From a virus: a stretch of DNA of 64,000 bases. The notes below the pieces were generated by a model. The model did not search any database, was not told the origin of the DNA, and saw only the letters and a list, made by a program, of their open reading frames with translations. The DNA is taken from the UHGV virus genome UHGV-0101699; one strand, given 5' to 3'. Below are positions 1,158 through 58,680 of this stretch, in pieces. A program made the translations under genes and the position numbers. The number at the start of each line of letters is the position of its first letter. The first letter of the stretch is position 1.

Positions 1158-1178
1158 AGATAAGTAAGTACATACCTA
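1158..1178 (-). promoter_or_regulatory. copy of dispersed box (AGATAAGTAAGTACATACC) upstream of sbcD-like gene
   Basis: Motif family GTAAGTACTTAC, followed on the coding strand by a TATTTT -10-like hexamer. Confidence 0.45.
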
Positions 1179-1231
1179 TTTTATAAGGTAGAGCTAGACA
1201 CTTAAGTAAGATCTAGACTCTGGGTGTGGTC

Positions 1232-1726
1232 TCAGCGTGGGTTGCGGAAAAGCAGTTGTGTGCCAGTGGGGCTGGTATCAACAAGATGAAAGCCACGGCG
1301 CTTAAGCATTTCAGCCATTTTTGTCGATTTGACGTAACACTTTGCCATCATTGGTAGTGGTGCGTTTGAGTCAATCATATCCGACAGGAACATCGAACCA
1401 TATCCTTTACCCTGCATAGATTTGGTGATACAGAAGGTACGGAGTTCAAGACGTTGATATCCAGCCGGATCAATCTCAGGAGTAAACCAGATCAGGCCAA
1501 TTTTTTTATCGTCTGAACGACGAAGCAGGATGAAGATGAAATGGCCTGACTCACCATTAGCGTCGCGAATCTTAATGGCTTCACGCATTTGTTTTTCAAA
1601 CTTCTTCCCACCGGCTTGCGTGATGATCTCATTTGTAAAGTGACCAAGACGTGCTCCTTCCTCGAATTCATGCATCAGAAAGGGCATATCAGCCAGAGTA
1701 ATCTCTCTTGAGTAAAAATCGTCCAT
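1232..1726 (-). CDS. GNAT-family N-acetyltransferase (putative)
   Basis: 164 aa. QGKGYGS matches the Q/RxxGxG/A acetyl-CoA motif. Size and beta-alpha pattern are typical of GNAT. Confidence 0.5.
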   Translation of the reverse strand: MDDFYSREITLADMPFLMHEFEEGARLGHFTNEIITQAGGKKFEKQMREAIKIRDANGESGHFIFILLRRSDDKKIGLIWFTPEIDPAGYQRLELRTFCITKSMQGKGYGSMFLSDMIDSNAPLPMMAKCYVKSTKMAEMLKRRGFHLVDTSPTGTQLLFRNPR

Positions 1727-1801
1727 ATATCACTCCCTTGGCTTCTCAGATGCATTCTAAGCTACGCTATTTTGTATTCGCGTAAAGACCCCTTTGTTCG
1801 C

Positions 1802-2446
1802 TTAGGGTTCGTCAGAGAGCTTCTGACGCGCATTTGCGATGCTAAAAACTTCTGCTTTTGGCCGAGGGTCGACTAAATCGAGTTCTGCTTCGCTGTGATA
1901 CTCGATATCAAAGTCCCGTTTGATGTGTCTGATGTAAATCGCTGTGAGCAGGCTGTCTTCTTTCAGGAAGTGGCCATAGGATCGGCGGATCACTTCACCT
2001 ACTTTTTCGATCTTCTCTCCGCCCATACAGAGGTGATTGAATCGACTGTGCTTTCTCAGCATTTCATCAACTGGCCCAGAGTAAACCTTATCCACGACAC
2101 CGAATCGAAGGATCTTCGCAGTATCAGCTTCAACCAGGCAGACAATCTTCCCCTCGGTCAATCTGTCACGCCAGGTAACGCCTGAACGCATAGTGTTGAA
2201 GTAGGGGGTATCCAGACCGATGATCGGTTTTCGAAATGCCAGCAGCGGTACGTATCTGGCACAGCTGTTCAGGTGGAAGTTAACGCCGGCGTCACGCAAC
2301 TTGAGTCGGGTCTCGTTGATGTTGCACTTCGAGGCTATGCCACACAGGCTGCAGAGAACCTTCTCGTTGCTCAGTGTGGAGTTTGATTCTATGGTGTAGG
2401 TTCCGTCTTCCAGACGGCGTACCCAACGTGTGCGTTTTAAGTCCAT
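1802..2446 (-). CDS. hypothetical protein
   Basis: 214-aa ORF with no overlap to neighbouring genes. No motif recognised. Confidence 0.5.
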   Translation of the reverse strand: MDLKRTRWVRRLEDGTYTIESNSTLSNEKVLCSLCGIASKCNINETRLKLRDAGVNFHLNSCARYVPLLAFRKPIIGLDTPYFNTMRSGVTWRDRLTEGKIVCLVEADTAKILRFGVVDKVYSGPVDEMLRKHSRFNHLCMGGEKIEKVGEVIRRSYGHFLKEDSLLTAIYIRHIKRDFDIEYHSEAELDLVDPRPKAEVFSIANARQKLSDEP

Positions 2447-2523
2447 GTTCTCGTTTTAGTGATTGTTGACCGGAACCACGATAGCTTACTAGGCACACCT
2501 GTAATCGCAAATGCCTGTTTTAC

Positions 2524-2604
2524 TTATCCACTTATCCACTGGTTAGATCCCAATAATAAGATCCCTATACAGATCCCTATATAGATCCAAAGAGATCCCC
2601 GATC
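2524..2604. promoter_or_regulatory. origin-like region: two tandem DnaA boxes (TTATCCACT x2, 2524..2540) followed by six GATC sites in AGATCCC-type heptamers (2546..2604)
   Basis: Direct reading. Clustered Dam sites plus DnaA boxes immediately upstream of iterons and the rep gene match P1 oriR-type architecture. Confidence 0.65.
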
Positions 2605-2644
2605 GCCGCAGGCCGCGCCACGCCTGGGCTAAGGACTGATCCGT

Positions 2645-2750: not shown

Positions 2751-2766
2751 ACCAAAAGGTATCCAC

Positions 2767-4315: not shown

Positions 4316-4528
4316 TTAGTGGATCTGCTTGAGCAAACCCCAAAGCGTTTGTGCTTTCGATGTGAGTTTCCCGGTTTCAGGATCAAACATGCGCCATTCC
4401 CTACGCTGGTGGATGATGTAACCGTCTTCGCGTTCCAGACGCTCCAGCATGTCCGGTTTTCGGAAGCCTTTCGCTCTCCAGTAGCCGCTTGTTTTCTCAA
4501 TCTCAAGACCAGTCATTGTGAGAGCCAT
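4316..4528 (-). CDS. hypothetical protein (70 aa)
   Basis: Strong SD (GTAAGGAGG, 7 nt spacer) before the ATG at 4528. The start overlaps the stop of the upstream gene as TAATG, which indicates translational coupling. Confidence 0.6.
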   Translation of the reverse strand: MALTMTGLEIEKTSGYWRAKGFRKPDMLERLEREDGYIIHQRREWRMFDPETGKLTSKAQTLWGLLKQIH

Positions 4529-4863
4529 TAACCAACCTCCTTACATCCGTCAAAAAAGAAACTTTGGTCTTTGCTATGAACGCCGTAGACGTCGTGGGAT
4601 TTGTTGTAGATAAGCTTATCCTCGCCAACGCCAACCAGTTTACCGTTTCGTTTAGCCAGATATGGAGATGAGAGAACCTCATCGCCGCGGACGACATAGA
4701 ACTGCTCTCCGCTATCAACGACCAGCGCGCCGAAGTCAGCTTTAGTAGGTCTGCTGATTTGATCATTTTTCACCTGCGATACGGTCATATCGCATTGGTA
4801 AATTCGGGTATCCGCCAGCAGAGAGAAGGAGAGGGCGGCCAGCAGTAGCGTTATTTTTCTCAT
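4528..4863 (-). CDS. secreted/periplasmic protein with N-terminal signal peptide (111 aa)
   Basis: Internal start MRKITLLLAALSFSLLADTR has n-, h- and c-regions of a Sec signal. The listed 204-aa ORF is a read-through composite. Confidence 0.5.
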   Translation of the reverse strand: MRKITLLLAALSFSLLADTRIYQCDMTVSQVKNDQISRPTKADFGALVVDSGEQFYVVRGDEVLSSPYLAKRNGKLVGVGEDKLIYNKSHDVYGVHSKDQSFFFDGCKEVG

Positions 4864-4976
4864 ACCACTATCCCTGTGTAGACCTGTGCTGTAGAGGTGA
4901 CGACCAGCACCAGTGCGAGCATGTTCACAGTGGTTCCGTTGACAGGAGACAGAGCTTTCTTGAGTGTCCCGATCAT
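4860..4976 (-). CDS. small hydrophobic peptide (38 aa, MIGTLKKALSPVNGTTVNMLALVLVVTSTAQVYTGIVV), tentative
   Basis: Own reading. Its stop overlaps the next start as ATGA. It has one predicted TM helix. It is not in the ORF track because it is short. Confidence 0.3.
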   Translation of the reverse strand: MIGTLKKALSPVNGTTVNMLALVLVVTSTAQVYTGIVV

Positions 4977-5220
4977 CAGGCAGTCCAACATAAACAGTAT
5001 TGAAAAGATGAGTAACAGGATATCTATGTATATCTTCATAATAGGTAAATACTAACTTATATATTTTGAGCTGTAAATGGCTACGGAAGAGCGCCAAGGC
5101 CTGGAATTCCCTAAGGATGGCGAGTCCAGAGCCATTCACCATAAGCAGTGGCTAAGCATCACTTTCAGTACTGGCAGATATCCAAACTAATATTCTCATG
5201 TGCTTCTCCTTTGTGGTTTA

Positions 5221-5235
5221 TGTACTTACTTATTA
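5221..5235 (-). promoter_or_regulatory. copy of dispersed box (TGTACTTACTTATTA)
   Basis: Upstream of the 4316..4976 minus-strand gene cluster. Confidence 0.4.
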
Positions 5236-7514: not shown

Positions 7515-7533
7515 GATAAGTAAGTACTTATAT
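7515..7533 (-). promoter_or_regulatory. copy of dispersed box (GATAAGTAAGTACTTATAT)
   Basis: About 30 bp upstream of the 7484 start, just after the recA terminator. Confidence 0.5.
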
Positions 7534-7575: not shown

Positions 7576-9921
7576 TTACTCGATGGTTTCTGTAGTGCCA
7601 GAAGACAGGTCTTTAGCTCGACGTTCGTCGATGGCCTGTAGCGCCGCAATGATCTCAGGAAGGGGCTTATCACGATACATGTCGACTATCTGCGATTTGG
7701 TGTACTTCTTGTCGCCAATCTCTACGCGGCCGCTGGCATTCTTTGGCAGGTATCCTTCTTCGAGCATGTGCTCAACCAGTGACTCGATAACGTCCAGACC
7801 GCGGGTCGGGTCGAAGTAGAATTTCCATGAGCATTTGCCGAATGGCGGTGCCACTTTGTTTTTGATGCACTCGGCGCCAACGTCCTGACCGATCTTATCT
7901 TTGCCATCCTTCATGACAGAAGCGCCAAGACGAATACGTACTGAGGCGTAGAACTTCGGAGAATCACCACCAGGGGAGGTGGTCGGATCGCCAAACATCA
8001 CGCCGATTTTTGTACGAACCTGGTTAAGGAAAATAATGCAGGCATTGTACTTGCGCGCCCATAGCGCCAGCGTTGGAAAGTTGGCGCTCGTGGCGCGAGC
8101 CAGGGCCGTATTATCGTTCATGTTTAGCTGATCTTTATCCTTCGCTGTACCTTCCGCCATTTTGTCGAACTTCTCGGCTTTGGAGTTTGGCACCATTGAC
8201 GCAAGGGAGTCGGCTACGATGCAAATAGGGGCGTCTGCGGGGATCAGCTCTTCGTCTCGCACCAGTTTCAGGATGGTGCCGATCAGCTCAACCGATTCTT
8301 CGAATGTGTCCGGCTGCTTATAGACCCACTGGCCGTCATCCTCATCCGCATTCAGCCCGTTTGCCACCGCCAGACCAACGTCAAAGCTGTTTTCGTGGTC
8401 GAGGAATACAGCCAGACCCTCCTGTTTCTGAGCGGAGACCATGGCGGCCGTCGCCAGGAATGTGTTGTGGCTGATAATCCCGTTAGACCAGAAAGAGTGT
8501 GTTTCCGGCATCGCTACGTCGAACGTTGGTGCTTCACCTTCCTCAATAGCCACGACTTCGTCGTAGAACAAGTTAGAGTCAATTACCGCTGCCAGTTGTG
8601 CAAACAGATGCTCGTTAAAACGATTCTTTCTGCCAATGAAGGAGACATAGATTTCTCGCAGTTTGTCTATTCCGACACGATCGCCGCGGCCAATAACGTG
8701 ATCTACCAGAACGTAGTCTTTACGAGAGGTCTTGGTGAGTGACTCGTAGAGTGATTTCACTAAGCCGCTGATGTGCGGAACGTAGCCTAAATAAGTGCGG
8801 TCAAAACTAATGTCCCGTTTGGTTGCCACTGCTAAACGAGCCGGAGACTCGAACCCAATCGTTGACAGGAAAAGGTCGTAGTTAGAGCCACTGAATGACA
8901 GCCGGTAATATATGTTTTTATAACCTGCGACGTGTTTTTCAGAGATAGTTGACGTAATCCCCAGATTCAGGAGCATGAGGCGAATTTGCTGTAGCAGCAG
9001 CCCACTCGCGCTCACAACCTCAATGCAGCGACCATCATTGACGTGGCATTCCAGCTCAAAGTAGCCGCGAAGGAATGCAATTTGAGCCTCGCTATTGGCG
9101 CGACGCACACTCAACGGAACCTGCTTGCCAGCAGCTTTCTCATACTCCAGACCATATTCTTTAAAAAGCAGCGAACGCACCTCTTTGCTAAACAGCACAT
9201 GGTCTTCCGAGCCGTTATGTTTTCTCGTAACTGGCATCTTGTCTGATACCAGCGAAATGAGGCGGTAGTACTCATCCTTGATGAATGGATCTGTGTTAGA
9301 AAAATGCACAGAATTTTCAGAGGCCACGTATCCGTCAGCAATTAAATAGCCCATCAGTTTTGCGATATTGGCATCCAAGTGCTGATCGCCGAATTGATGT
9401 GTGCCAACCATTGAAGGAATCGTGTCGCCTACACTGATTTTTTCAGCATACCGCCAGACGATATTGCCTAAGTCGTCAACCACACGAATTGGGTGACGGA
9501 ACGTAGCCTCGATGTAACCCCCTGATGCCAGCTTAATGCGCTTGAATTTGCGACGGTTGTTCCATGTCAGGTGTGAGGTCTTCTCTATCACGCCATTTTC
9601 ATTGATGAGTCCAACGTTATGCTCTACATCGCGAGTAGTGCATGTTGCTTTGTGCCCCTCAATCTCAAACAGTTCTTTCACTGTTACCATTCCACGCTCC
9701 GTCAGCAGCATGGTGTCTGCGGTAACACATTTCCCCGCACTTGGCGGCCCAAAGATCTCAACGATACGTCCGCTTGGGAAACCGCCGTCATAGCGCCCGG
9801 AGATGGCTTTATTCAGCGGAGGGAAGCCGGAATCAATCCAGTGTGAAACCTTTTGGATCTCGTCATTGCTGCCGATTTTCTTTTTTAATGCCATTGCCAG
9901 TGCTGATTTTCCTTTTGCCAT
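7576..9921 (-). CDS. recA: RecA-family recombinase interrupted by a 422-aa intein at the P-loop
   Basis: Exteins align along their full length with E. coli RecA (GRIVEIFGPPSAGK|TFLA; IFLNQVRTKIGVMFGDPTTSPGGDSPKFYASVRIRLG; KNKVAPPF). The intein lies between GK and T. Confidence 0.85.
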   Translation of the reverse strand: MAKGKSALAMALKKKIGSNDEIQKVSHWIDSGFPPLNKAISGRYDGGFPSGRIVEIFGPPSAGKCVTADTMLLTERGMVTVKELFEIEGHKATCTTRDVEHNVGLINENGVIEKTSHLTWNNRRKFKRIKLASGGYIEATFRHPIRVVDDLGNIVWRYAEKISVGDTIPSMVGTHQFGDQHLDANIAKLMGYLIADGYVASENSVHFSNTDPFIKDEYYRLISLVSDKMPVTRKHNGSEDHVLFSKEVRSLLFKEYGLEYEKAAGKQVPLSVRRANSEAQIAFLRGYFELECHVNDGRCIEVVSASGLLLQQIRLMLLNLGITSTISEKHVAGYKNIYYRLSFSGSNYDLFLSTIGFESPARLAVATKRDISFDRTYLGYVPHISGLVKSLYESLTKTSRKDYVLVDHVIGRGDRVGIDKLREIYVSFIGRKNRFNEHLFAQLAAVIDSNLFYDEVVAIEEGEAPTFDVAMPETHSFWSNGIISHNTFLATAAMVSAQKQEGLAVFLDHENSFDVGLAVANGLNADEDDGQWVYKQPDTFEESVELIGTILKLVRDEELIPADAPICIVADSLASMVPNSKAEKFDKMAEGTAKDKDQLNMNDNTALARATSANFPTLALWARKYNACIIFLNQVRTKIGVMFGDPTTSPGGDSPKFYASVRIRLGASVMKDGKDKIGQDVGAECIKNKVAPPFGKCSWKFYFDPTRGLDVIESLVEHMLEEGYLPKNASGRVEIGDKKYTKSQIVDMYRDKPLPEIIAALQAIDERRAKDLSSGTTETIE
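8464..9729 (-). mobile_element. LAGLIDADG-type intein (homing endonuclease domain) inserted in recA Walker A
   Basis: It begins with Cys (GK|CVTADTML) and ends with ...IISHN|T. Two LAGLIDADG motifs are present (KLMGYLIADGYV, IAFLRGYFELECHV). The codon boundaries were checked against the nucleotide sequence. Confidence 0.8.
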
Positions 9922-12290: not shown

Positions 12291-12314
12291 AGATCAGTAC
12301 TTACTTACTATCTA
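12291..12314 (-). promoter_or_regulatory. copy of dispersed box (AGATCAGTACTTACTTACTATCTA) upstream of SSB gene
   Basis: On the coding strand the box is followed directly by TATTAT. Confidence 0.5.
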
Positions 12315-13910: not shown

Positions 13911-15080
13911 TCATTTGTTAATAGTCTCCGCAACCTCTGCCAGAATGGCTTCCAGCTTTTCTCCTTCCTCTGGACGGAAGTACAAAATATTCGGGTTAAA
14001 TCCATAGAACACGGTCACGTCCAGGTCTGGCAGATATTCTTTGCGCCCAACAAGATCGGATGGCTTGCTCTTGTTATTAAACAGCGATGTCGCCCGGCTG
14101 CCGCACGTCAGCACGTAAGTTGGACGAACCAGATTTATCTCTTCCCGCATAAAGTCGATAAACTGGCCGATCTCATCTTTGGTGTAGTCTTTTTCCTTAT
14201 CCTTTACCTTTTTACACACGCCTGTGACATACAAATCACCCATACGCAGGTCACCAGAAACCAGCAACTTGGCTTTGAAGTCATCGTAGCCGTTCTCCAT
14301 GAAGTAGCCGGTACGTGCATCATTGCCATTGGCGTTGTCGAGTATGACCATAATTTTTGGCTTAATGCCGATGCTTGGTCGTATCAACTCATCGCCCAGA
14401 CCCATTTCTGCGGCCATGCGAGTCATCAGCACATTGACCTCTGCAGAGCGTTTTGGGTTCATTTCAAATGGGCGTGAAGCTTTCACCGCATCGATCACCA
14501 GATTGCCCATCAGCTCTGCCTGATCGCGCAGACGTTCCGGATCGGTCGCCGGCATACTGCCAGGTTCAATAGAGGCGAATGCACCAACCTTTTGTAGAGA
14601 CTCACGTACTCGGCTGTTACAGGCTCGCTTCTCGACCGCTTCCTCAAATTGCTCAAGTGACTCGAATTTGCCGCCAACTTTCTCACGCGCTCTCATGATG
14701 GCCTGGCAACCATTCTCAGAGCAGCCTTTCACAGCAGAGAATGGCGCATACAGAACCTGGCTGCCGTCTTCCAGCGTGCGGATCTCAATTCGGTTAGATG
14801 ACACGTTAACGTCTGGTGGCAATACGCGAATGCCATAGGTCAGCGCATCCTTAACCAGCCCCTGGTGCTTATCCTCGCCCAGAATGGTGAGAGCAGCAGC
14901 GAAGAACTCAGCAGGGTAATGTGTCTTTAACCACATAGACTGATAGCTGATCAGCGAGTAGGCAACGGAGTGTGATTTGTTGAAGGCATATCCACCGAAC
15001 TTCTCAAAGGCGTCCCATACTTCTTGGGCTTTCTCAGGGCTAAGACCTTCCTGCTCGGAAATAACTTTGGCAATTTTCAT
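13911..15080 (-). CDS. dnaE: DNA polymerase III alpha (DnaE-type), C-terminal part (fingers tip, beta-binding, OB, C-terminus)
   Basis: GYAFNKSHSVAYSLISYQSMWLKTHYPAEFFAA is the hallmark DnaE segment. Alignment with E. coli DnaE places the split between KNG and INAE. Confidence 0.8.
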   Translation of the reverse strand: MKIAKVISEQEGLSPEKAQEVWDAFEKFGGYAFNKSHSVAYSLISYQSMWLKTHYPAEFFAAALTILGEDKHQGLVKDALTYGIRVLPPDVNVSSNRIEIRTLEDGSQVLYAPFSAVKGCSENGCQAIMRAREKVGGKFESLEQFEEAVEKRACNSRVRESLQKVGAFASIEPGSMPATDPERLRDQAELMGNLVIDAVKASRPFEMNPKRSAEVNVLMTRMAAEMGLGDELIRPSIGIKPKIMVILDNANGNDARTGYFMENGYDDFKAKLLVSGDLRMGDLYVTGVCKKVKDKEKDYTKDEIGQFIDFMREEINLVRPTYVLTCGSRATSLFNNKSKPSDLVGRKEYLPDLDVTVFYGFNPNILYFRPEEGEKLEAILAEVAETINK

Positions 15081-15796
15081 GTGTTTTTCCCGTCATTAGC
15101 TTCAAACGCTAGCTTTTTTAAGATATTTGCGATTTGAGTGTTAGAGATGCCGAATTTTTCTCGCAACTTTTCATAGGTTGCGCCAGCCTTGCGCAAGGCG
15201 ACCACCTCAGCTCTTGCTTCAGCATCCAGTTTTTTGGATGCTCTTGAGACAACGATCGGCCCACCAACTCGTGCCCATTTCTTCCCGGTGACGATATGGT
15301 GAATGTAAAGCTCAGTTAAACCATATTCGGCCGCGAGGTCTTTGTTCAGAGCGCCTTCTGACTTTTTAATGCGAATAGCAATGACGACTTCGTTGGTTAG
15401 CTTGGCGTTGTAGCGCCTCTCACCAAACTCAACGGTATCGTGTGCAATGGCGTCAGCCATGTTGTCGACTTGAGTGCCATACGCGAGATTGGAGGGCGCA
15501 TTGTTTGATGGTCTTCCGTCAAGATGACGAATAAGTAAGCCTTCTGGTCGTTCTCCGTGGAATGCAGTTGCTACCAGATAATGGACTGTGCGGTCGCATT
15601 TGACGCCGTTGACGCTTAGTTTCACGCCCAGATGTCCAAAATCATTGATTACGCGAGGTTTGAGGATTTGCCCCTTCTTCACCCATTCGCCCCCATTGGG
15701 GGCTGTTCGTATAACATCTAAAGAGCGAATGCGACCTAAACTGGATGCTTCGTAATAACCTTCAAACTCAGGAATGGATTTCCAAATTTCTTCCAC
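15077..15796 (-). mobile_element. free-standing HNH homing endonuclease gene inserted within dnaE (NUMOD4 + HNH_3 type)
   Basis: EEIWKSIPEFEGYYEASSLGRIRS (NUMOD4-like) and HYLVATAFHGERPEGLLIRHLDGRPSNN (HNH). It sits exactly between the two dnaE parts with ATGA/TGA overlaps. The probable start is a GTG with a GGAG SD. Confidence 0.8.
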
Positions 15797-15798
15797 CG

Positions 15799-19637: not shown

Positions 19638-19655
19638 AGTAACTAGTTACTTATT
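19638..19655 (-). promoter_or_regulatory. variant box (AGTAACTAGTTACTTATT) upstream of AAA+ ATPase gene
   Basis: Palindromic variant GTAACTAGTTAC. Confidence 0.4.
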
Positions 19656-19671: not shown

Positions 19672-21952
19672 TTACTCTAAAATGATACGAGATAACTCGC
19701 TGACAACTGACGTACCCAACTCTTCGACCTTATTCACTAGCGCATAGTTTTTGTAATACCGGCGCGGCGCGTCCGTAAGAATGCCAATGGCCAACAGGTT
19801 GATGTCACTTGTGTTTTCGATGTCATTCGTTACAGAGCGCAGATGGTTACTAAAGCCATCCCCCGCAGCGCATGGGGCGCCGTCGCTCTGCACAATCATG
19901 ATCTTCTTGTCTTCCATACGCCCTGCAAACAGAGAAGCCAGCTGTGCGATGCTCTCGCCATCCACGTTGTTTAGCAGGGGGAAAGTCTCCGCCACACAGC
20001 CCATACGAGCACGTATCTCTGGGGAGTTCGCTTTTTCATGCCAGTTTTTAATAATCGGCAGCATAAGCGCTTCAAAGCGGCTAAACCCACGTTTCGACAT
20101 AGTTGCTACATCCGGATTGCCATACGTAGTGAAGCCGGTAATGACGTTCGGAACGTGGATACGATCTAGGGCGTCAGCCAGTGTGTATGCGGATGCCAGC
20201 GCGAGCTCGATTTTTCGGCCGCCCATTGAACCTGACAAATCGATGACCTGTTGAACGCACGCGTTCACGGCCTTGTGGTCTTCTTTTCTCCGGAATACCC
20301 GATCGTCATTCATCGACAGTCGGTAAAGACTCGCCCCATGTACGCGTCCACGACGCTGGCCAGGGATGAACTGAACACGGTTACGACTGGCGATCGCGCG
20401 CTCCAGGTCTTTGGCCAAGGTAGATGACACCGAGGAAGACAGATGTCTCTCCACCTTCATCACAAACAGTTTTCTGCCCTCTGGAACAATGCGGTAGCGA
20501 TCTACGGGAGAATACATAGGGATTGCGCCAAAAGCTTTTCTGGCGCGCTTAATATGCTCTTCTGCCTCGTCAATTGGCCCCAGAAAGTCGTAGGAGCGAT
20601 TGTATGGCCGGTAATCAGATAGTGACGCGCTGGCCAGCTCCGACTTGATCGCCGACGCCAGCGCATCTTCGGTTGAAGAACCTATCTCTTCATCGACGTT
20701 TTCTAATGCCTTGAGAGCATCATCAAGAGACATATCGTCAGCGTGTGGGGCAAAGCCGGCATCGCTTTCATCCGAGGTGTCCCGACCCCCTTCATCCTTC
20801 TCCTTGCCACCGTCTTTATCTGCCTTGCCTTCACCGTCTTCGACAGCTTCGCTGTCATCAGAGGAGCTGCCATGCCTGTCCTCTGAGCCATCATCCGTGG
20901 ACGGACTGTAATCCCCTTCATCATCTACTTCTTCCCCTACATCCGAGCCCAGAGATGTAACAGGATCATCAGCTGTCGTTTCTTCGCTGTCAGGCAAGTC
21001 GTCAACATTTTCATGGCCTAAATCGCCATCTTCAGGTTTACTTTCTGTATCATTTATTACTTCATCACTGTTAGGTATGTGCTTACTTATCGATTTGTCT
21101 GATTTTTCATCATCTTCATCGTCAGAGCTAAACCCATCAGGAGTGCTTTCGAGCCCCTCTTCGTCACAAACCTCAGTATCGTCTCCAGCAGCCGGCTCAT
21201 CCGAACTGTCTTCTTCTGGTTCGGTCTTTTTGGTTACAGAGGATTCAAGCTCAGGTAACGGGCCTTCTGGCATCTCAGTCATTTCACGCAGGATCTTCGC
21301 CATTGCTGCAGCAACCTTGACGCAATCCTCAGTGCTATCCATACGACGAACAGCTTCATCGACGCCAAACTCTTTCAGTACGGCAATAGGTTTATCGATG
21401 AGGTGCCAGTGCTCCTCCATGAAATCAACAAAAGTTGGTTGGCCATCCCACGCCCGTAGAACCGGACAGAGGAAGAACTTTAGAAACAACTCGCGTTGAT
21501 CCCCGCGGCACATCGCTACCGCCTTTTTAATGTGGGGATTAAAATATTTATCAATCATTAGGTTACGTGTGGACAATAGGTTCCGCCGGCTGCCGGTGAA
21601 CACTTCACTCATGCGACGTTCGATGTAGACGTCTTCCAGGGCGTTCCAGAGTCCGAATGCCTTTGTGTTGCGCATTTTCTTGACGACTTTTTCGTCTGTG
21701 AAAAGGAGATGGCCAACCTCGTGATCAAGGAATCCACGTATGGCATTCATAAGCGCAGGGCTTGCGTCATCTGGTATGGATGGGATGTTAACCATGACTG
21801 GCTCACCCTTTTTATTGTAGCGAACGTATGCTGTGTCTCCGCATTCAGCTACAGGAATATTCTTGCCCGAAAGAAGACCAACGACGCGTTTTACGGAATC
21901 GCGGAAGTCCTGTACCTCTTTGAGTACAGTTTTGCTGGGTTTGGTTGCCATG
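19672..21952 (-). CDS. von Willebrand factor A domain protein, CobT-like, with ~190-aa Asp/Glu/Ser-rich low-complexity region
   Basis: Start reassigned to MATKPSK at 21952, which has the conserved TAAGGAAAAACAC-ATG context. C-terminal vWA MIDAS motif VIDLSGSMGG. Confidence 0.7.
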
Positions 21953-22281: not shown

Positions 22282-22507
22282 TAATAGCATCCTAATCAAC
22301 AGGTTTCATTTGGAGGTGATGGTACTACCTATTGATATAAAAGTTAATAAAAATGTATCGTAATGTCTTAAACAAAAATAATCAAAAAAATCAACAGAAG
22401 TACCGGATTTTACTAATTTATACCTTATTTCGTGTGATTTATGTGCGATAATTGCCTACAAATAGCCGGATGTAAGACTTTACAATAATAACCGTTGCTG
22501 TAATATC

Positions 22508-22528
22508 GGTAAGTACTTACCATACAAT
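22508..22528 (+). promoter_or_regulatory. perfect palindrome GGTAAGTACTTACC abutting -10 TACAAT, putative operator/promoter of the regulator gene
   Basis: Best copy of the dispersed box. It lies 27 bp upstream of the ATG at 22555, with SD AGGA. Confidence 0.6.
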
Positions 22529-22554: not shown

Positions 22555-22935
22555 ATGACAATGGCCGATGAGAAGACCGCTCGTTACGTCGCCTACATCG
22601 ATTCTTTAATCACTGTTTCGCCGAAAAGTCAGTCGGCGATCTCCCGTGAGATTGGTTACAAGAATCCCAACATTTTGTCCCTGATAAAAAAGGGAAGAAT
22701 TCCGCTGCCGGTAGAGAAAGTGCTACCACTGGCAGAAGCACTGAATGCAGACCCAGTACGTCTCATGATGATGGTTCTTGAAGACCGTCAGCCTGAGCTG
22801 GCAGATTTTTTACGAGACCAGGGCATAGCGCCGCTGACTCCGGAAGAACGTGAGGTTCTCGCAGCTTTCCGCAACCGCTTTCCGGCTCAAACTGATGGTG
22901 TTGAGCAGGTTGTGGAAGCAATTAAAAAGCTATGA
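22555..22935 (+). CDS. HTH (XRE/Cro-CI-like) transcriptional regulator, putative
   Basis: The SQSAISREIGYKNPNILSLIKKGR helix-turn-helix pattern is the only + strand gene in this block. It converges on the recombinase gene. Confidence 0.5.
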   Translation: MTMADEKTARYVAYIDSLITVSPKSQSAISREIGYKNPNILSLIKKGRIPLPVEKVLPLAEALNADPVRLMMMVLEDRQPELADFLRDQGIAPLTPEEREVLAAFRNRFPAQTDGVEQVVEAIKKL

Positions 22936-24030
22936 GAAGTTTACTCTGATCAGCTCGGTGGATAGGCGATCTCCCTTCATTTTGTGGTCAATTTCTTCTA
23001 AATCTGGTTGCTCAACAATCGACGAGATGTACGATGAGAAGCTCTCAAGGGCTTCTCGCATCTGATCCATGTAGTCATATCGGTCGTATACACGGTCGAT
23101 ACCTTCCAGACTATGATTCATGATCTTACGTGATACTTCCTGAGAAATATTAAGGGCTGGAAAGTAGCTGCGTGCCGTTCTACGCAGATCACGTGGGGTA
23201 AACGACTCCACTTCCCCAAGCTCTGGTCGCTCTAGAATCCGCCTCAACGCCTGGGCTATTGCAACCTTTGACATTGGCGTATCAGCTTTCTTTTTGTTCG
23301 ACGGGACGAGCCACTGGCTGCCGGCGCCATAAGCAATCAATTCTTCTACGCACTTCCGCATCAGTGAGCTCATCGGAAGGGTGTGCGACCGGGCCGATTT
23401 GTTGCGAGACCCTTGATTCCATACATTTAGCTTAAGGTCGAACTCGCTTACTCTGGCCCGCAGCACTTCATCTGGACGTCTGGCAGCTACGAGGCAAAGC
23501 CTTGCCGCCCATTTCGTGCCTGGACATACGTCGAAATAGTCCCAGACATTCCAGAATACCCAAACCTCTGCGTCCGTCAGGCATCGTTCCCGCGGGGCCG
23601 TCTTCGCGCCGCCGGCAACTTTGTTCAGCGACATATCATTCAGGGGCGATGTTTCGATAATTCCCTGGAAGGCACACCATCCCAGGAACTGCTTCATGAT
23701 GGAAAAAACACGGCGACCCATCACGATCTTCCCTTCAAGGATCAGCGGGTTGACCAGCTGATTCACCATTATTCTATTCAGGTTACTTACTTTTTCCTGA
23801 GCGATATGCGGGAGAACATGTATCAAAACACAATGGACAGCTATCTCGGGCCGGCGGCGAGTTATCAATAATGATAAGCGAGTGAATAACATGAATGCGT
23901 CGGCGAAAGTCAGATCGGCTCCCTGCATCGAGACCGATCTGGCATCCATCTGCGATGCCCGATCCAGATAGGTGATCGCTTCCTGTGACGTGTTTTCCGC
24001 TGCGCGTGCTCTGTCAAACGTGTTTTTCAT
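22930..24030 (-). CDS. tyrosine recombinase / integrase family protein
   Basis: C-terminal catalytic signature HTLPMSSLMRKC...FTPRDLRRTARSY...HSLEGIDRVYDRYDY (R, H-x-x-R, Y). Confidence 0.85.
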   Translation of the reverse strand: MKNTFDRARAAENTSQEAITYLDRASQMDARSVSMQGADLTFADAFMLFTRLSLLITRRRPEIAVHCVLIHVLPHIAQEKVSNLNRIMVNQLVNPLILEGKIVMGRRVFSIMKQFLGWCAFQGIIETSPLNDMSLNKVAGGAKTAPRERCLTDAEVWVFWNVWDYFDVCPGTKWAARLCLVAARRPDEVLRARVSEFDLKLNVWNQGSRNKSARSHTLPMSSLMRKCVEELIAYGAGSQWLVPSNKKKADTPMSKVAIAQALRRILERPELGEVESFTPRDLRRTARSYFPALNISQEVSRKIMNHSLEGIDRVYDRYDYMDQMREALESFSSYISSIVEQPDLEEIDHKMKGDRLSTELIRVNFS

Positions 24031-24739: not shown

Positions 24740-24803
24740 AAAATATGAAAATTATCGCAATATAACCACGCTACGAATGAGAAAGGCATGGAGCTGCAGG
24801 TAA

Positions 24804-25214: not shown

Positions 25215-25223
25215 CGATCAGCC

Positions 25224-25841: not shown

Positions 25842-25935
25842 AAAACCTCTTTACAGCTAAATGGCTCGTACCTAAGTGTACGCTCTGTTATCAAAAGCGA
25901 CAAATCAAAACGGCCCCAAACGGAGCCGTATTGTA

Positions 25936-26564: not shown

Positions 26565-26573
26565 TTTGTTTCC

Positions 26574-27350: not shown

Positions 27351-27404
27351 ATTGAGTCCTTTCAAGTGAGTAACCAGACGAACTATACCTAAAAGAGAAC
27401 GCAA

Positions 27405-27427
27405 AAGTAAGTAAGTAGTTACATAAC
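27405..27427 (-). promoter_or_regulatory. copy of dispersed box (AAGTAAGTAAGTAGTTACATAAC) upstream of phoH
   Basis: Lies between the phoH start and the tRNA-Ser gene. Confidence 0.45.
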
Positions 27428-27622
27428 AACAAGAGCGCTTATGCAAGAAAAGGGGCCGAAGCCCCTTTGGATTTTGCGCTGAAAAAGTGTTGCTAAGATG
27501 CTAGAAGCTATGGTTAAAGAACGTCTGCCGTAATGTCTATCACAGCGTTGAGCGGTCTGGCCATGGTGACAGGCGGAGTCTTTTCGATAAGAAAAACAAA
27601 ACCAAACCGCTCAACGCTGTGT

Positions 27623-28668: not shown

Positions 28669-28684
28669 TAAGTAAATACTTACC
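28669..28684 (-). promoter_or_regulatory. copy of dispersed box (TAAGTAAATACTTACC) upstream of the ORF-free structured region and tRNA genes
   Basis: It is the only candidate promoter element reading into 27.9..28.65 kb on the minus strand. Confidence 0.4.
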
Positions 28685-32439: not shown

Positions 32440-32460
32440 ATGTAAGTAGCTACTTATCAA
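32440..32460. promoter_or_regulatory. palindromic variant (ATGTAAGTAGCTACTTATCAA) in divergent region
   Basis: TAAGTAGCTACTTA is a perfect palindrome. Confidence 0.45.
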
Positions 32461-37302: not shown

Positions 37303-37324
37303 ATAGGTAACTACTTACTTAACA
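37303..37324. promoter_or_regulatory. copy of dispersed box (GATAGGTAACTACTTACTTAAC) in divergent region
   Basis: Upstream of the 36567..37292 gene. Divergent from the 37571 gene. Confidence 0.45.
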
Positions 37325-42754: not shown

Positions 42755-42804
42755 GAATAAGTCAAATCGGATGGCAGATTTATATCATAAATTAGAAACT
42801 TATT

Positions 42805-42824
42805 GTAGGTAAGTACTTACATAC
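42805..42824 (-). promoter_or_regulatory. copy of dispersed box (GTAGGTAAGTACTTACATAC) upstream of lysis cassette
   Basis: On the coding strand GTAAGTACTTACC is followed by TACAAT, the same arrangement as at 22508. Confidence 0.55.
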
Positions 42825-56507: not shown

Positions 56508-56517
56508 AAAACTTCCC

Positions 56518-57129
56518 TTACAGTTGGTCTATGGTGATTGAAGAACTCACAATCTGTGAGCCAACTAAAATTTCCTCGCCGTAATTAAGCTGAACCGGGT
56601 TTCCCTGGTTGCTGGTGTTTTGAGGCCCATCGAAATAAAACGAATCCGTGTTATCAGCCTGTCTGACAGACGCATTTGATGCCTGCGGCGAAATCAGCAT
56701 GGACACACCGCCCATCATCAATGACATCCCTCCCATCATCAGCGCAGATGACGCACCCGCGGTAAGACCAAAGCCAATCGCACCGACAGCGATCATCGCG
56801 GCGCCTACGAAAGTCTGGAACCACCCAAACGCCTTACCACCGCTGCCACGTGGTACGGGAGTAATGCGGATTTTTGCGATATTTTCCGACTCGCCCATCA
56901 TCTGGTATTCGGTGTCGTCCATTGACCACTTGTGGCCCTGCTTATTTGTGACCTGGATGTGGTACTTATCGAAGTGGTTACGGTTACGCTTAATCCAGGC
57001 TTTAAAGCCCGGGCGATTCGCCTCAATCAAATCGATGGCTTGTTTGGTGTTGCGCACCTTCAATTTCCAATGGCGGCCAAAGTTCTTTGCCATCGCACCG
57101 CCGAGCTGAACATGAACTAATTCAGACAC
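56518..57129 (-). CDS. I: tail assembly protein I homolog
   Basis: Position between K and J. Gly/Ala-rich hydrophobic C-terminal half as in lambda gpI. Confidence 0.65.
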   Translation of the reverse strand: MSELVHVQLGGAMAKNFGRHWKLKVRNTKQAIDLIEANRPGFKAWIKRNRNHFDKYHIQVTNKQGHKWSMDDTEYQMMGESENIAKIRITPVPRGSGGKAFGWFQTFVGAAMIAVGAIGFGLTAGASSALMMGGMSLMMGGVSMLISPQASNASVRQADNTDSFYFDGPQNTSNQGNPVQLNYGEEILVGSQIVSSSITIDQL

Positions 57130-57914
57130 GTCTCGTCTCCCTTGAGTAAATCCCTGTGACGCAGGTGATGCGTCGTGTGCTTCTGATACATCCCACCGTA
57201 ATAAGCCCGACAGCTGAGACGGTCGATCTGGTGATGCATGATCATGCCGTCGCCGATGTATACCGCGCAGTGATCTGGCATTTTCCCGTACTGGATGAAG
57301 AAGATGTCGCCGCGCTGGGGTTCCGTCCCCGGCGCCATGCGGACAAGTCCTTCATTTCGGTAGTTCTGGTCGAGGATGTCGTTGTCCCCCGTGTACCAGG
57401 AAGGAATATGCAGGTGGGCGTTTGCATTCAGCTCAACGTCAAATTCACGCTTTAGGTAATCGCGGCACAGCATCCAGCAATCAAACACACCGAATACGTA
57501 TGGGCGCCCGAGGTAGGGCATCTCAAAACCACACGGATAAATGACGTTCATTTCGCTAAAGTGGAATGGCATATCGCTTTCCACATTTTTGCGAATTGCC
57601 AGAATCATCCACGGTAGTTCCGTCGCCTCGCACCCGGAGCGATCCGGGTCTGACGCCTCTGCGCTGCGCTCAACGTGAGAGTGCCAAATAGCGATCACTT
57701 CCCCAGCATCTTCGGCCGCAATAATGTCGCTGGCACGCATGACAAAATCCTCACGTGGCGTTTCAGAGACATTCATCGCTTCCATAAAGCGATATTTCTC
57801 ACCCTGTGTGCGCACCAGAAAGCCACACGCTTCATTCGGGTAACGTTGGATAGCGCAGCGGTAGATATCCTGCATGACTTCTGAGCCCAGCTCAGGTAAC
57901 GTCTGGTTACTCAT
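57117..57914 (-). CDS. K: tail tip assembly protein K homolog (JAB/MPN + NlpC/P60 domains)
   Basis: JAMM motif AIWHSHVERSAEASDPD. NlpC/P60 Cys-His-His (DCWMLCRDYL...H..H). Start reassigned to MSNQTL, which overlaps the gpL stop as ATGAGTAA. The listed N-terminal extension is non-coding. Confidence 0.75.
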   Translation of the reverse strand: MSNQTLPELGSEVMQDIYRCAIQRYPNEACGFLVRTQGEKYRFMEAMNVSETPREDFVMRASDIIAAEDAGEVIAIWHSHVERSAEASDPDRSGCEATELPWMILAIRKNVESDMPFHFSEMNVIYPCGFEMPYLGRPYVFGVFDCWMLCRDYLKREFDVELNANAHLHIPSWYTGDNDILDQNYRNEGLVRMAPGTEPQRGDIFFIQYGKMPDHCAVYIGDGMIMHHQIDRLSCRAYYGGMYQKHTTHHLRHRDLLKGDETCLN

Positions 57915-58608
57915 ATCGTGTCGCCCCAATAAATCCGCCAAAATGAATAACGCCATTCGCGAAGTAGTTGCGACGAGCATTACAGGCGTCGTAACGCTTG
58001 GTGCAGTAGTCGGCGCCGGCCAAAGAGGTTTGCTGGTTGTTTTTGTCGAAATATGGGCCGGTGTAGCCACACTCTGTTCCGCGATATTTCCACGGGCAGC
58101 TGTTTTTGATGATCTGACGATACGGCAGTTGAACACCCATCAGATCTAAGACGCTGGACAGCTCGAATTCGACATACTGGTGTGTCTCCAGGGTCTTCTG
58201 TTCGACGAACCACATTTCATCAGCAAAATGCTGACTTGGGTCTGCGGTCGGGTTTCCATCCGGAAAGTTCACCGCGTCCAGAAAACGTGCCAGCGTCATC
58301 TTGCGAATGATTTTGCAGCCAATCAGATCGTCATTGGCCTGCAGCTCGGCAGAAATTACACCGTCGTAGTTGGAAACCTGAATCTTTGGACGAGGAAGTG
58401 TTCCCTGACCGCTTTTATCAAAGCCAGACGCTTTAATTGGCCACGGCTCATAGGAAACTCCCTGCCAGACAATTGGCTGGCTAAGCCCGTTGGTGCCGGC
58501 ATGGAAATACAACTTGCCGCCGGAGGTTGTCACCGACATATCCAGCTCGAACAACTCAATGAGCGCAGAAGGCGATAAACTCTGAATATCAGCTCTAATA
58601 CCCATCAC
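57907..58608 (-). CDS. L: minor tail protein L homolog
   Basis: RFLDAVNF and the four-Cys cluster (C..C......C...C) match lambda gpL. Confidence 0.85.
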   Translation of the reverse strand: MMGIRADIQSLSPSALIELFELDMSVTTSGGKLYFHAGTNGLSQPIVWQGVSYEPWPIKASGFDKSGQGTLPRPKIQVSNYDGVISAELQANDDLIGCKIIRKMTLARFLDAVNFPDGNPTADPSQHFADEMWFVEQKTLETHQYVEFELSSVLDLMGVQLPYRQIIKNSCPWKYRGTECGYTGPYFDKNNQQTSLAGADYCTKRYDACNARRNYFANGVIHFGGFIGATRYE

Positions 58609-58659
58609 TTCATCCTTGAAAAACTCAACGTCACATCCTGTGACGTTGATATATAATAA

Positions 58660-58680
58660 TAGATAAGTACTTACTTATCT
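58660..58680 (-). promoter_or_regulatory. copy of dispersed box (AGATAAGTACTTACTTATCTA) between gpM and gpL genes
   Basis: Extended palindrome AGATAAGTA/TACTTATCT. Followed on the coding strand by TATTAT, then a GTCACA..TGTGAC hairpin before the ATG. Confidence 0.5.

Follow-up and report, generated by a model that had tools for sequence, protein, structure and literature searches.

Palindromic boxes and the genes behind them

The window, the whole 64,000-nucleotide stretch that was analysed, belongs to a pKpn-type Klebsiella phage-plasmid of the SSU5 supergroup. A palindromic box adjoining a −10-like hexamer stands ahead of about 13 of its transcription units. The full element is a 20-bp palindrome, TARG-TAAG-TA-CTTA-CYTA, around the 12-bp core GTAAGTACTTAC, with conserved outer bases (GTAAG/CTTAC) and variable central ones. 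The window contains 15 matches to GTAAGTACTTAC with at most two mismatches, against 1.04 ± 1.12 (maximum 6) in dinucleotide-preserving shuffles of the window, and TAAGTAMTTAC occurs exactly 6 times where 0.03 are expected. A 20-bp matrix trained on the sites of one other genome only, Salmonella phage SSU5, scores 20 window positions at 12 or higher, against 0.57 in shuffles. These merge into 13 intergenic loci, the number of copies in the original prediction, with cores starting at 1164, 5045, 5218, 7520, 12293, 19639, 22509, 27411, 28672, 32442, 37307, 42809 and 58663; one further copy is intragenic (21075).

Apart from the box at 22509, which lies between divergent genes, the copies are assigned to the minus strand. 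The first, GTATGTACTTAC (1164..1175, read on the minus strand; arms ATAG/TTAT; matrix score 28.8), is 119 nt upstream of the start (1044) of an SbcD-like exonuclease gene and is orthologous to box 347 of pJN2-26. Box GTTAGTATTTAC (5045..5056; score 23.5; orthologue pJN2-26 104809), followed by C-TATTAT, falls within annotated ORF 4528-5142 or at its 5' part and precedes a Cra-like gene. The weak box GTAAGTACATAA (5218..5229; score 10.1; orthologue pJN2-26 104675) has ACCACA at the hexamer position and thus no −10 after it, with a Shine-Dalgarno sequence (AGGAG) and an ATG 18 nt downstream. Box ATAAGTACTTAC (7520..7531) sits exactly in the 17-bp spacer of a complete sigma-70-type promoter, TTGAAA-N17-TATCAT, an arrangement also present in SSU5 (55699) and Cyrano (57450); it is preceded by a GC-rich terminator-like hairpin and T-run 3' of a RecA-like gene, and lies 35 nt upstream of genes for a 67-aa membrane protein and an SPFH-like protein. 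A gp32-like SSB gene (start 12202) begins 90 nt downstream of GTAAGTACTGAT (12293..12304; score 24.4; orthologues pJN2-26 99985, SSU5 52179), which is followed by C-TATTAT, and a CobS-like AAA ATPase gene (start 19575) begins 63 nt downstream of GTAACTAGTTAC (19639..19650; orthologues pJN2-26 93372, SSU5 45128), a symmetric double variant followed by TATAAA. The intragenic copy GTAAGCACATAC (21075..21086; score 24.0) is within a CobT-like gene (19672-21951), and relatives carry a box at the corresponding position (pJN2-26 91936, SSU5 43665).

Box GTAACTACTTAC (27411..27422; score 20.6), then T-TACTTT, is 60 nt upstream of a PhoH-like gene (start 27350). For GTAAGTATTTAC (28672..28683; score 29.7; orthologues pJN2-26 83370, SSU5 41773, Cyrano 38252), followed by T-TATTAA, the next lytic-strand genes encode tRNA-Asn (27857-27931) and tRNA-Ser (27623-27709), about 740 nt downstream. 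The weaker box GTAGCTACTTAC (32442..32453; score 19.1), followed by A-TATTTT, lies 45 nt upstream of a 262-aa gene (start 32396); its Cyrano orthologue, box 34734, precedes CYRAN_34, which is expressed in all conditions. Box GTAAGTAGTTAC (37307..37318; score 23.9) and its C-TATCGG lie 14 nt upstream of the ATG (37292) of a 241-aa gene that precedes a DnaB-like helicase gene, and the transcript would be leaderless if this hexamer acts as a −10. A perfect GTAAGTACTTAC (42809..42820; score 27.1), followed by C-TACAAT (42802-42807), is found 12 nt past the stop codon of the tail-fibre gene and 66 nt upstream of the holin gene (start 42742), with orthologues in pJN2-26 (69446), SSU5 (27478, GTAAGCGCTTAC) and Cyrano (26661). 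Likewise, GTAAGTACTTAT (58663..58674; score 30.0) and C-TATTAT (58656-58661) lie 17 nt past the stop codon of tail protein M and 57 nt upstream of the tail protein L gene (start 58605; orthologues pJN2-26 53625, SSU5 15593, Cyrano 15533).

These positions bear out a dispersed, dyad-symmetric box on gene-proximal promoters of the replication, lysis and tail modules. Some details of the original prediction need amending: every copy was to lie 18-115 bp upstream of a gene, and 11 copies do lie at 14-119 nt, but those at 28672 (740 nt) and 5045 (in an ORF) do not. A good −10 follows most copies rather than all, the exceptions being 5218, 37307 (TATCGG) and 27411 (TACTTT), and the proposed absence of a −35 is true of most copies but not of 7520, with its TTGAAA 17 bp from TATCAT.

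Conservation and register with the −10 hexamer

About 25 transcription-unit starts per genome carry the box, 13 of them in the window, and pJN2-26, SSU5 and Cyrano have box sites at orthologous places, preceding lytic-strand operons from all modules. In the annotated relatives, where the non-coding share is roughly 12%, 23 of 26 copies in pJN2-26 (p = 1.4e-18) and 19 of 22 in SSU5 (p = 1.8e-15) are intergenic. Together with the 8 window copies that match GTAAGTACTTAC with at most one mismatch, against 0 in 50 kb of P1, these counts show that the box is no compositional artefact. In our reading of the pJN2-26 annotation, none of about 10 convergent gene gaps holds a box; divergent gaps do. Sequence comparison shows the box to be conserved across the whole SSU5-like phage-plasmid family.

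The box stands in fixed register with the −10: if the adjacent hexamer is the −10, the core spans about −25 to −14 and abuts or overlaps it. Of 91 sites, 31 have a gene-proximal hexamer that agrees with the −10 at 5 of 6 positions, compared with 15 for the distal hexamer (p = 0.01). The outer arm of the longer palindrome (ATAR-core-YTAT) is also the start of the hexamer, so the −10-like hexamers present at most copies are partly palindrome arm, and the information content of the two flanks is nearly equal (upstream 1.4 and 0.96 bits, downstream 1.04 and 1.13 bits). About 80% of box promoters have no recognisable −35: 21% of sites match it at 4 or more of 6 positions, where 13% would do so by chance. 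Some boxes, such as that at the terminase/portal junction and window site 5218, have no promoter features at all.

In distant Acinetobacter relatives (the AB group), both half-sites have changed together, giving GTCAGTACTGAC at 28 sites in the same kinds of position as the TAAG boxes. The upstream arm is TCA in 26 of 28 of these, whereas only about 14 of 28 have TGA downstream (Fisher p = 0.0008), the remainder carrying TATACT, TTACAA or similar at offset 0. The symmetric change, with a gene-proximal arm that is often TATACT, points to a box read by a dimeric protein in the −10 register, as the original prediction of a dimeric phage regulator would have it. The same register could suit an activator-dependent promoter class like that of the P1 late genes, in which the box replaces the −35 and a lytic-phase phage activator recruits host RNA polymerase: a −35 is missing from most sites, together with which a −10-like hexamer stands at fixed register, and the Acinetobacter sites keep TATACT at the expense of the palindrome arm. 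We regard such a class as the main rival reading, though a rather unlikely one.

The XRE-family gene and expression in Cyrano lysogens

The remaining box, a perfect GTAAGTACTTAC (22509..22520), separates an XRE-like gene on the plus strand from a divergent 70-aa gene and CobT-like operon on the minus strand, with C-GATATT (22502-22507) on the lytic-strand side and CA-TACAAT (22523-22528) on the XRE side. The XRE-like gene (22555..22935, plus strand) encodes a 126-aa HTH protein and candidate box-binding repressor that matches phrog_8 (E = 1.5e-8), has no Pfam family match and whose homologues are named 'XRE family' by NCBI. It is convergent with an integrase gene (22930-24030, minus strand), occurs in about 830 SSU5-like plasmids, and has CYRAN_45, a lysogen-expressed 'putative repressor' gene of Cyrano, as its orthologue. 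The plaque-isolated phage SSU5 lacks the integrase, XRE and 70-aa gene block and still grows, which shows that the XRE protein is not a required activator.

The predicted promoter of this gene is an extended −10, TGcTGTAAT (22496..22504, plus strand), and Klebsiella, E. coli and Acinetobacter relatives all keep TGnTGTAAT immediately ahead of the box. This would put the XRE start site in the first bases of box 22509, so that a bound protein would block the XRE promoter. A box over the predicted start is found in Klebsiella, E. coli, Yersinia, Kluyvera and Acinetobacter relatives; the divergent arrangement is kept in Cyrano, Yersinia, Kluyvera and Buttiauxella, and in Acinetobacter with a GTCAG-type box. 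No other conserved palindrome or multi-copy operator was found in the XRE regulatory region. Three TAAG-box clades begin the recognition helix with N where the TCAG-box clade has R, which favours the XRE protein as binder. Against it, this N-to-R change is one evolutionary event, K takes the place of N in a Photorhabdus relative whose boxes are also of the TAAG type, and distant alphaproteobacterial XRE homologues yielded no interpretable boxes. The proposed link between box and XRE gene has gained support from the family-wide spread of this XRE-like gene, its lysogen-expressed orthologue and the box over its predicted start, with the XRE protein as candidate binder and repression as the proposed sign of regulation.

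In the published Cyrano RNA-seq (bulk, mostly uninduced cells, gene level, n = 19-23, several conditions tested), the higher the box score, the lower the expression of the following gene (rho = −0.56, p = 0.005 in MB1; rho = −0.49, p = 0.018 in MB6). In condition B6, the mean step at gene junctions is −0.88 with a box versus +0.39 without (one-sided p about 0.002, obtained by subtracting from one the p reported for the opposite direction), and the drop persists even where only about 12 nt separate stop codon and box. This suggests that, in lysogeny, box junctions act as barriers; both the negative correlation and the barrier effect could also stem from, for example, mRNA processing or operon ends. 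In the partly induced MB6, several box junctions show strong upward steps (+2.5, +3.6 and +3.65 log2), the +3.6 step being at the junction that matches window box 7520.

Expression falling across boxes in uninduced cells is also what might be seen if the box were an RNA-level element, its hairpin in polycistronic transcripts causing weak intrinsic termination or processing, or being bound by an FljA-like RNA-binding repressor. Some sites have A-rich upstream and T-rich downstream flanks, pairing is kept by co-variation while the central four bases vary in one clade in a loop-like manner, and enteric relatives encode an FljA-family protein (PF03614). We nevertheless consider this highly improbable: the hairpins are AU-rich and weak (−4.9 to −10.9 kcal/mol, with 1 of 5 tested lacking the palindromic fold), one sequence is common to all sites of a genome with no free co-variation, and boxes are missing from the convergent gaps where terminators are expected. 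An RNA element would also leave the gene-directed −10 asymmetry unexplained, and no FljA-like counterpart is among the proteins shared with the box-carrying Acinetobacter plasmid.

Those shared proteins, 46 between SSU5 and the Acinetobacter plasmid, include other DNA-binding candidates: two proteins with confirmed ParB-N domains (KorB- or Noc-like), a winged-helix small terminase and a small CYRAN_123-like protein. The box might serve one of these in silencing, DNA organisation or packaging rather than in promoter control as such. The ParB-like gene is immediately preceded by a box in pJN2-26, SSU5 and the Acinetobacter plasmid, promoter-less boxes (e.g. at the terminase/portal junction) occur in both clades, and KorB, ParB and Noc sites are typically multi-copy palindromes of 13-16 bp. 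However, ParB-like genes are at background in Cyrano lysogens, where box junctions act as barriers and the XRE orthologue reaches log2 6.6-10. The fixed −10 register and strand-directed asymmetry are not expected of centromere- or Noc-type sites, and no centromere-like clustering of boxes was seen, which makes such a role improbable.

Operators, activators and known systems

The box is most likely a common cis-element of the lytic regulon of SSU5-supergroup phage-plasmids. Going by sequence and published expression, we give about an even chance to its being the dispersed operator of the XRE repressor, the putative binder, overlapping the lytic promoters. In the plasmid (lysogenic) state, a dimeric phage protein, most likely the conserved XRE-family protein, would cover −10 and spacer at all lytic promoters and impede transcription running from one operon into the next; as it would also cover the transcription start belonging to its own extended −10 promoter, it would regulate itself negatively, and its inactivation would release all box promoters at once. 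This reading draws on the lower expression behind better boxes, on the box within the 17-bp spacer of a complete promoter at 7520 and its orthologues, and on a family-wide, lysogen-expressed XRE gene whose start holds the only conserved palindrome. Against it, a single operator type shared by early-like and late genes would allow no temporal cascade. Further counter-points are that −35-less promoters are a hallmark of activator dependence, as in P1 late promoters, that so strict a register between box and −10 is expected more of an activator in contact with RNA polymerase, and that simple derepression might not suffice to fire promoters without a −35.

Were the box instead the site of an activator, the XRE protein would govern only entry into the cascade, and the activator could switch the repressor gene off through the box on that gene's promoter. 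The step-ups in MB6 fit this, as does the sharing of AAGT/ACTT half-sites with the late promoters of P1, a phage-plasmid of the same hosts. Searches for the P1 activator Lpa (PF25716) by phmmer and family profile in the window, pJN2-26, SSU5, Cyrano and the Acinetobacter plasmid found no homologue (all matches E > 0.2), and the small genes tested, all in families of unknown function, gave no candidate. Better boxes have lower, not higher, expression, some boxes are placed so that a start there would be of no use to the following gene (no −10, or an ATG only 14-20 nt away), and the XRE regulatory region contains no further conserved multi-copy operator.

Of the systems with which the box had been compared, the scattered P1 C1 operators are apt, whereas the T4 MotA box, which is asymmetric and centred near −30, is not. 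The closest architectural analogue, overlooked earlier, is the Lpa-dependent P1 late promoter, in which an AAGTnACTT box lies just upstream of the −10; in the annotated P1 record these promoters read AAGTnACTT, 4 nt and TAnnnT, without a −35. The P1 class serves late genes, whereas the box serves DNA-metabolism genes too, which counts against a P1-like activator.

The palindromic element of SSU5-supergroup phage-plasmids

The palindromic box scattered over the window is a real, family-wide and previously undescribed cis-element which defines a lytic regulon. The family concerned, the SSU5 supergroup of phage-plasmids, takes in Klebsiella pKpn, Salmonella pHCM2-like plasmids and Yersinia pestis pMT1, and its members are very common in clinical Enterobacteriaceae. 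Megablast aligned the window at 97-98% identity to the Klebsiella phage-plasmids vB_Kpn_1825-KPC53, pJN2-26 and p4727, and at ~80% identity to Salmonella phage SSU5 and the E. coli phage-plasmid Cyrano, which makes it a pKpn-type member of the supergroup as defined by Pfeifer et al. 2021 (PMC7969092). The complete annotated genomes of pJN2-26, SSU5 and Cyrano served as references, and 104.8 kb of an Acinetobacter baumannii relative as a distant one.

With up to 2 mismatches, GTAAGTACTTAC has 15 matches in the window against 1.04 expected from dinucleotide-preserving shuffles, and a 20-bp matrix built from SSU5 sites only scores 12 or more at 20 window positions against 0.57 in shuffles. These 20 positions reduce to 13 intergenic loci, in agreement with the 13 copies of the original prediction, and one strong intragenic copy at 21075. 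Copies are concentrated in non-coding DNA: 23 of 26 are intergenic in pJN2-26, which has 12% non-coding DNA (binomial p = 1.4e-18), and 19 of 22 in SSU5 (binomial p = 1.8e-15). At one mismatch or fewer, there are 8 copies in the window and 0 in 50 kb of P1, so that the element withstands the check for a compositional artefact that had been proposed for it. Among 2.9 million IMG/VR contigs, the 18-mer TAGGTAAGTACTTACCTA occurs in only 31 stretches, nearly all of them on contigs of 40-110 kb that are probably SSU5-like; for an exact 14-mer scan of IMG/VR the pattern was too unspecific to be useful.

Once every site is oriented towards the gene it precedes, the alignment shows a longer dyad, aaaATAR-GTAAGTACTTAC-YTATnAT, whose two flanks carry nearly equal information content. 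The -10-like hexamer that had been noted after each copy is therefore in part the outer arm of the palindrome. The box is made of four 4-nt units, TARG and TAAG before a central TA and CTTA and CYTA after it, with conservation highest at the outer bases and a variable centre (GTAC, GCGC, GTGC, GTAT). The divergent Klebsiella plasmid CP027615 retains the arms ATAAGTAA and TTACTTAT, with the central four bases free to vary. Conserved arms around a variable centre are the pattern that a dimeric DNA-binding protein with two half-sites would leave.

A second repeat family, TAATAACACCAACAAGAAAACAAGTTGTTTA, is present in ~6 copies at pJN2-26 24793-29107, outside the window, and includes the palindrome AAACAAGTTGTTT. 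A small lytic-strand gene of unknown function follows every copy, which ends at the gene's start codon; AAACAAGTTG is enriched in plasmid CP027615 too. These repeats may form a class of their own, of promoter, operator or leader type, that serves an 'early' gene block.

Gene context and register with the -10 hexamer

The minus strand of the window carries almost all lytic genes. Boxes in the window stand ahead of exonuclease, SSB, CobS/CobT-like, PhoH, tRNA, helicase, lysis and tail genes, and elsewhere in the genome they precede ribonucleotide reductase, thymidylate synthase, methylase, portal, capsid and tail genes. The earlier view that the controlled genes span the replication, lysis and tail modules is borne out, as boxes front lytic-strand operons of every module.

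Divergent gene gaps do contain boxes, and by our own reading of the pJN2-26 annotation 0 of ~10 convergent gaps has one. The RNA hairpins predicted for the boxes are weak, with AU-rich stems of -4.9 to -10.9 kcal/mol and inconsistent T-runs. Given such folds and the absence from convergent gaps, the boxes are therefore not terminators, and their conservation is sequence-specific, which also speaks against an RNA hairpin. An FljA-like RNA-level binder was rejected as well: the protein is conserved in enteric relatives and has no counterpart among proteins shared with the Acinetobacter plasmid; similarity to an Hfq-annotated Acinetobacter protein is not significant.

Across four genomes, 64 of 91 sites have a gene-proximal hexamer with 4 or more of the 6 -10 positions matched, and hexamers matching 5 of 6 positions number 31 on the proximal side versus 15 on the distal side of the 91 sites (p = 0.01). 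Hexamers with 4 or more of the 6 -35 positions matched are found at 21% of sites versus 13% of random positions. The claim that no copy has a recognisable -35 hexamer thus holds for most sites and fails for a minority, which comprises a portal-gene internal site and the window box at 7520 with its orthologues, where TTGAAA stands 17 bp from TATCAT and the box fills the spacer. A properly spaced -35 at 19-20 bp, as in MerR-type promoters, was not found at the boxes, and we know of no consensus for MerR-type spacer operators or for host factors (CRP, Fur, LexA, LacI family, NarL and others) that fits them.

The strong box at 21075-21086 (matrix score 24) lies ~870 nt inside the CobT-like gene, has a corresponding box in pJN2-26 and SSU5, and may serve the downstream CobS-like gene as an internal promoter or operator. 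Another copy separates the large terminase gene from the portal gene, exactly between the stop codon of the former and the RBS of the latter (pJN2-26 40584, SSU5 2035, Acinetobacter record 22171). This terminase/portal box has no usable -10 in the enteric and Acinetobacter clades alike, and the box therefore has some role besides transcript starts. In pJN2-26 (15677-16250) and Cyrano (78481-79061), a gene-poor gap of ~500 nt comes after a box; the Cyrano gap is annotated as the 44-aa CYRAN_81, whose expression is 10-12 times background in lysogens, and the gap may encode a small RNA.

Two genes of the window carry insertions or apparent insertions. The DNA polymerase III alpha gene (13911-18162, minus strand) is interrupted by ~730 nt and contiguous in pJN2-26 (3519 nt): one minus-strand ORF (15799-18162) has the PHP, core and finger domains, another (13911-15080) the HHH_6 domain, and an HNH/NUMOD4 homing-endonuclease ORF lies in the insert (15077-15802), which could make this a split gene or an intron-like insertion. 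The RecA-like recombinase (7576-9921, minus strand) has 781 aa versus 357 aa in pJN2-26 and carries an intein that includes a LAGLIDADG endonuclease domain (Pfam Intein_splicing, LAGLIDADG_3); the Cyrano RecA gene is similarly long, at 2340 nt.

Distant relatives provide the strongest evidence on the nature of the box. The Acinetobacter AB-group phage-plasmid is syntenic with weak similarity, and its most over-represented 10-mers are parts of GTCAGTACTGAC, which is the box dyad with both half-sites altered from TAAG to TCAG. It has 28 copies (at most 2 mismatches) in the same kinds of position as the enteric boxes, among them the junction of terminase and portal genes and the stretch that precedes the XRE gene. 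The upstream arm reads TCA in 26 of the 28 copies and the gene-proximal arm TGA in ~14 (Fisher p = 0.0008), the remaining proximal arms having TATACT, TATCTT, TTACAA or TACAAT instead, at offset 0. A TGAT arm is unable to double as a -10, so the Acinetobacter element is visibly asymmetric. This arm asymmetry, together with the proximal excess of -10 matches, argues that the box is a protein-binding dyad in fixed register with a real -10. The symmetric half-site change and the two-half-site conservation pattern also favour the dimeric regulator that the dyad symmetry had suggested.

A candidate XRE-family repressor

The candidate box-binding protein, encoded at 22555-22935, matches phrog_8 and has no Pfam match and no peptidase S24 domain; its homologues are named XRE family regulators by NCBI. 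The Cyrano orthologue, CYRAN_45, is listed as a putative master repressor and is ~10-fold above background in LF82 lysogens (PMC9928086). In PLSDB, the XRE gene is paired with an integrase gene in ~830 plasmids of 100-115 kb, whose hosts include Klebsiella, E. coli, Enterobacter, Salmonella, Yersinia pestis, Citrobacter and Acinetobacter. Also in Cyrano, and outside the window, CYRAN_98 (89311-89700) is a 129-aa 'LexA-like peptidase S24' protein without an obvious HTH; its expression is among the highest in Cyrano under every condition (log2 7-12), and it may bear on the reported SOS inducibility of Cyrano.

The XRE control region contains a conserved extended -10, TGnTGTAAT, with a box 4-9 nt downstream, an arrangement present in six clades (Klebsiella, E. 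coli, Yersinia, Kluyvera, Buttiauxella and Acinetobacter). A box had been placed on the promoter of the HTH-regulator gene, and its position directly downstream of this element supports that placement, the start site being a predicted one; judging from this spacing, a bound protein would cover the start. Enteric XRE loci confirm the box arrangement, and distant alphaproteobacterial XRE loci have no recurrent palindromes. The XRE regulatory region holds no other conserved multi-copy palindrome. An inverted repeat, TTACA-N14-TGTAA (window 22479-22503), spans the -35/-10 of the XRE promoter and is conserved in Cyrano. We rejected it as a second XRE operator since it has a single copy per genome; either a private site of regulation or plain promoter elements would fit. 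The predicted recognition helix begins with N in three clades with TAAG boxes, with R in the clade with TCAG boxes and with K in a Photorhabdus remnant. The N/R change alongside the TAAG/TCAG boxes is suggestive, and is a single event.

No XRE homologue was found in phage SSU5. Over the region compared, SSU5 is 91-93% identical to plasmids with integrase and XRE, while some of its segments reach 99% identity to other plasmids, and it has a ~3-kb deletion of the integrase gene, the XRE gene and a divergent 70-aa gene. The name-giver of the group, without this block of its near relatives at ~41.8-42.8 kb, looks like a deletion derivative, and the loss may explain its isolation as a plaque-forming phage. 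XRE is therefore dispensable for lytic growth, so that if it binds the box, it would do so as a repressor. The objection that XRE cannot be the box factor since SSU5 lacks it was dropped, as SSU5 derives by deletion from plasmids with both integrase and XRE. Relaxed selection on the SSU5 boxes was also discarded: Cyrano keeps XRE, yet its boxes are equally degenerate.

Expression was taken from the per-gene Cyrano table of PMC9928086, which is coarse, bulk and gene-level. Same-strand junctions with a box (n = 22) show no step-up in uninduced cultures: in condition B6, the mean junction step is -0.88 log2 with a box versus +0.39 for 76 junctions without one (one-sided p ~0.002, obtained by subtracting from one the p reported for a step-up). 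The step-down holds even where only ~12 nt separate stop codon and box. Some box junctions rise strongly in the macrophage 6-h sample, which is partly induced, by +2.5, +3.6 and +3.65 log2. The better the box, the lower the expression downstream of it (rho -0.56, p = 0.005 in MB1; rho -0.49, p = 0.018 in MB6), which fits an operator. These data only tilt the balance towards repression through the boxes.

The correlation also bears on the main rival, a promoter class resembling P1 late promoters and dependent on a putative activator. Such a class would account for the general absence of a -35 and for the strict register between box and -10, but lower expression downstream of better boxes is the opposite sign to that expected of an activator site, and we regard the class as rather unlikely. 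Among the small early-region proteins no activator was found, all of them belonging to PHROG families of unknown function. The best supported mechanism is that the box is a dispersed operator of the XRE-family repressor, a reading in which we place about as much belief as doubt: bound to the boxes, the repressor would overlap the -10 and spacer of lytic promoters, and it would also cover the start of its own promoter. The family has the XRE-like gene, lysogens express it and lytic growth can do without it; the arguments for its putative pairing with the box are position, one co-variation event and the expression correlations.

The operator and activator-class readings could both be true at once. 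In one such circuit, which we think improbable, a single palindromic box would gate all lytic transcription units of a ~110-kb phage-plasmid in one tier, as XRE operator and as the -35-replacing promoter core for a second, Lpa-like factor. The units so gated would be those for DNA metabolism, replication, tRNAs, lysis, head and tail; the second factor would read the AAGT/ACTT half-sites, and specificity would have been re-tuned from TAAG to TCAG in Acinetobacter. If this is true, the promoter type of the P1 '-22 box' would have in the box a second example of independent origin.

A full-text motif search and the literature on SSU5 and phage-plasmid regulation returned no study of operators or promoters and no published account of lysis-lysogeny control in SSU5-supergroup phage-plasmids. 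The box gives a genome-wide map of lytic transcription units, a candidate repressor-operator pair and a simple marker of immunity or specificity groups (TAAG-type versus TCAG-type). If the repressor reading is true, one protein-DNA interaction governs the induction of a whole class of elements which carry resistance genes.

Comparison with known regulatory systems

The MotA box of T4, to which the element had been likened, is asymmetric, 9 bp long, centred near -30 and read by monomeric MotA with AsiA; that comparison does not hold for a dyad centred near -19.5. The KorB operators (OB) of RK2, about a dozen short palindromes over the plasmid with global control of operons, share with the box a dispersed short palindrome and a putative control of many operons. 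KorB, however, is a ParB-family protein whose sites are found either before the -35 or well away from promoters, whereas the box abuts the -10, a register atypical for KorB/ParB sites. ParB-N proteins, which are alternative candidates for binding the box, are encoded by relatives, outside the window, and in the Cyrano table ParB-like genes are at background in lysogens.

Lambdoid CI/Cro operators, such as those of the 434 repressor, resemble the box in several respects: a candidate dimeric XRE-type HTH protein, a palindrome whose centre is conserved less well, an operator in the gap that separates the repressor gene from a divergent lytic operon, and predicted negative autoregulation. Lambdoid phages have tandem operators at two loci, whereas here ~25 single sites are spread genome-wide and the candidate protein has no peptidase S24 domain.

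The late promoters of P1 depend in vivo on host SspA and on Lpa, and have a '-22 box' of AAGTnACTT followed by 4 nt and TAnnnT, without a -35. We compared six from the annotated P1 record with the window sites, which share the AAGT/ACTT inverted repeat just upstream of a TAnnnT -10, the absence, at most sites, of a -35 and the setting in an enterobacterial phage-plasmid. They depart from the '-22 box' geometry: the half-sites abut (AAGTACTT, no central base) inside a longer dyad of 12-20 bp, ACTT is 3 nt from the -10 rather than 4, and the dyad centre is ~1.5 bp nearer the -10. Nor are they restricted to late operons, as boxes also precede exonuclease, SSB, ribonucleotide reductase, thymidylate synthase, methylase, helicase and tRNA genes. 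A homologue of Lpa (PF25716, phrog_1704) was not found at E < 0.2 by tblastn, phmmer or a profile from 11 Lpa homologues, either among the complete ORF sets of the window, pJN2-26, SSU5 and Cyrano or in 40 kb of Acinetobacter plasmid sequence. Spacing, non-late genes and the absence of an Lpa homologue rule out membership of the P1 Lpa system.

The operators of the P1 prophage repressor C1 are asymmetric and are not known to control more than early functions and lpa. In the P1 annotation they are 17-bp sites at varying positions on complete -35/-10 promoters, whereas the box is a perfect dyad in fixed -10 register, mostly without a -35, also found before structural and lysis genes and assigned to a small XRE-type candidate repressor. 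The original prediction had likened the boxes to scattered C1 operators, and this likeness is upheld: as in P1, one short conserved site is scattered in many copies over a ~100-kb phage-plasmid and overlaps the promoters of many operons, here lytic ones, including the control region of a regulator itself, here the candidate repressor with its predicted start site. The putative role is also the same, a site bound by a prophage repressor which would keep the plasmid prophage silent.
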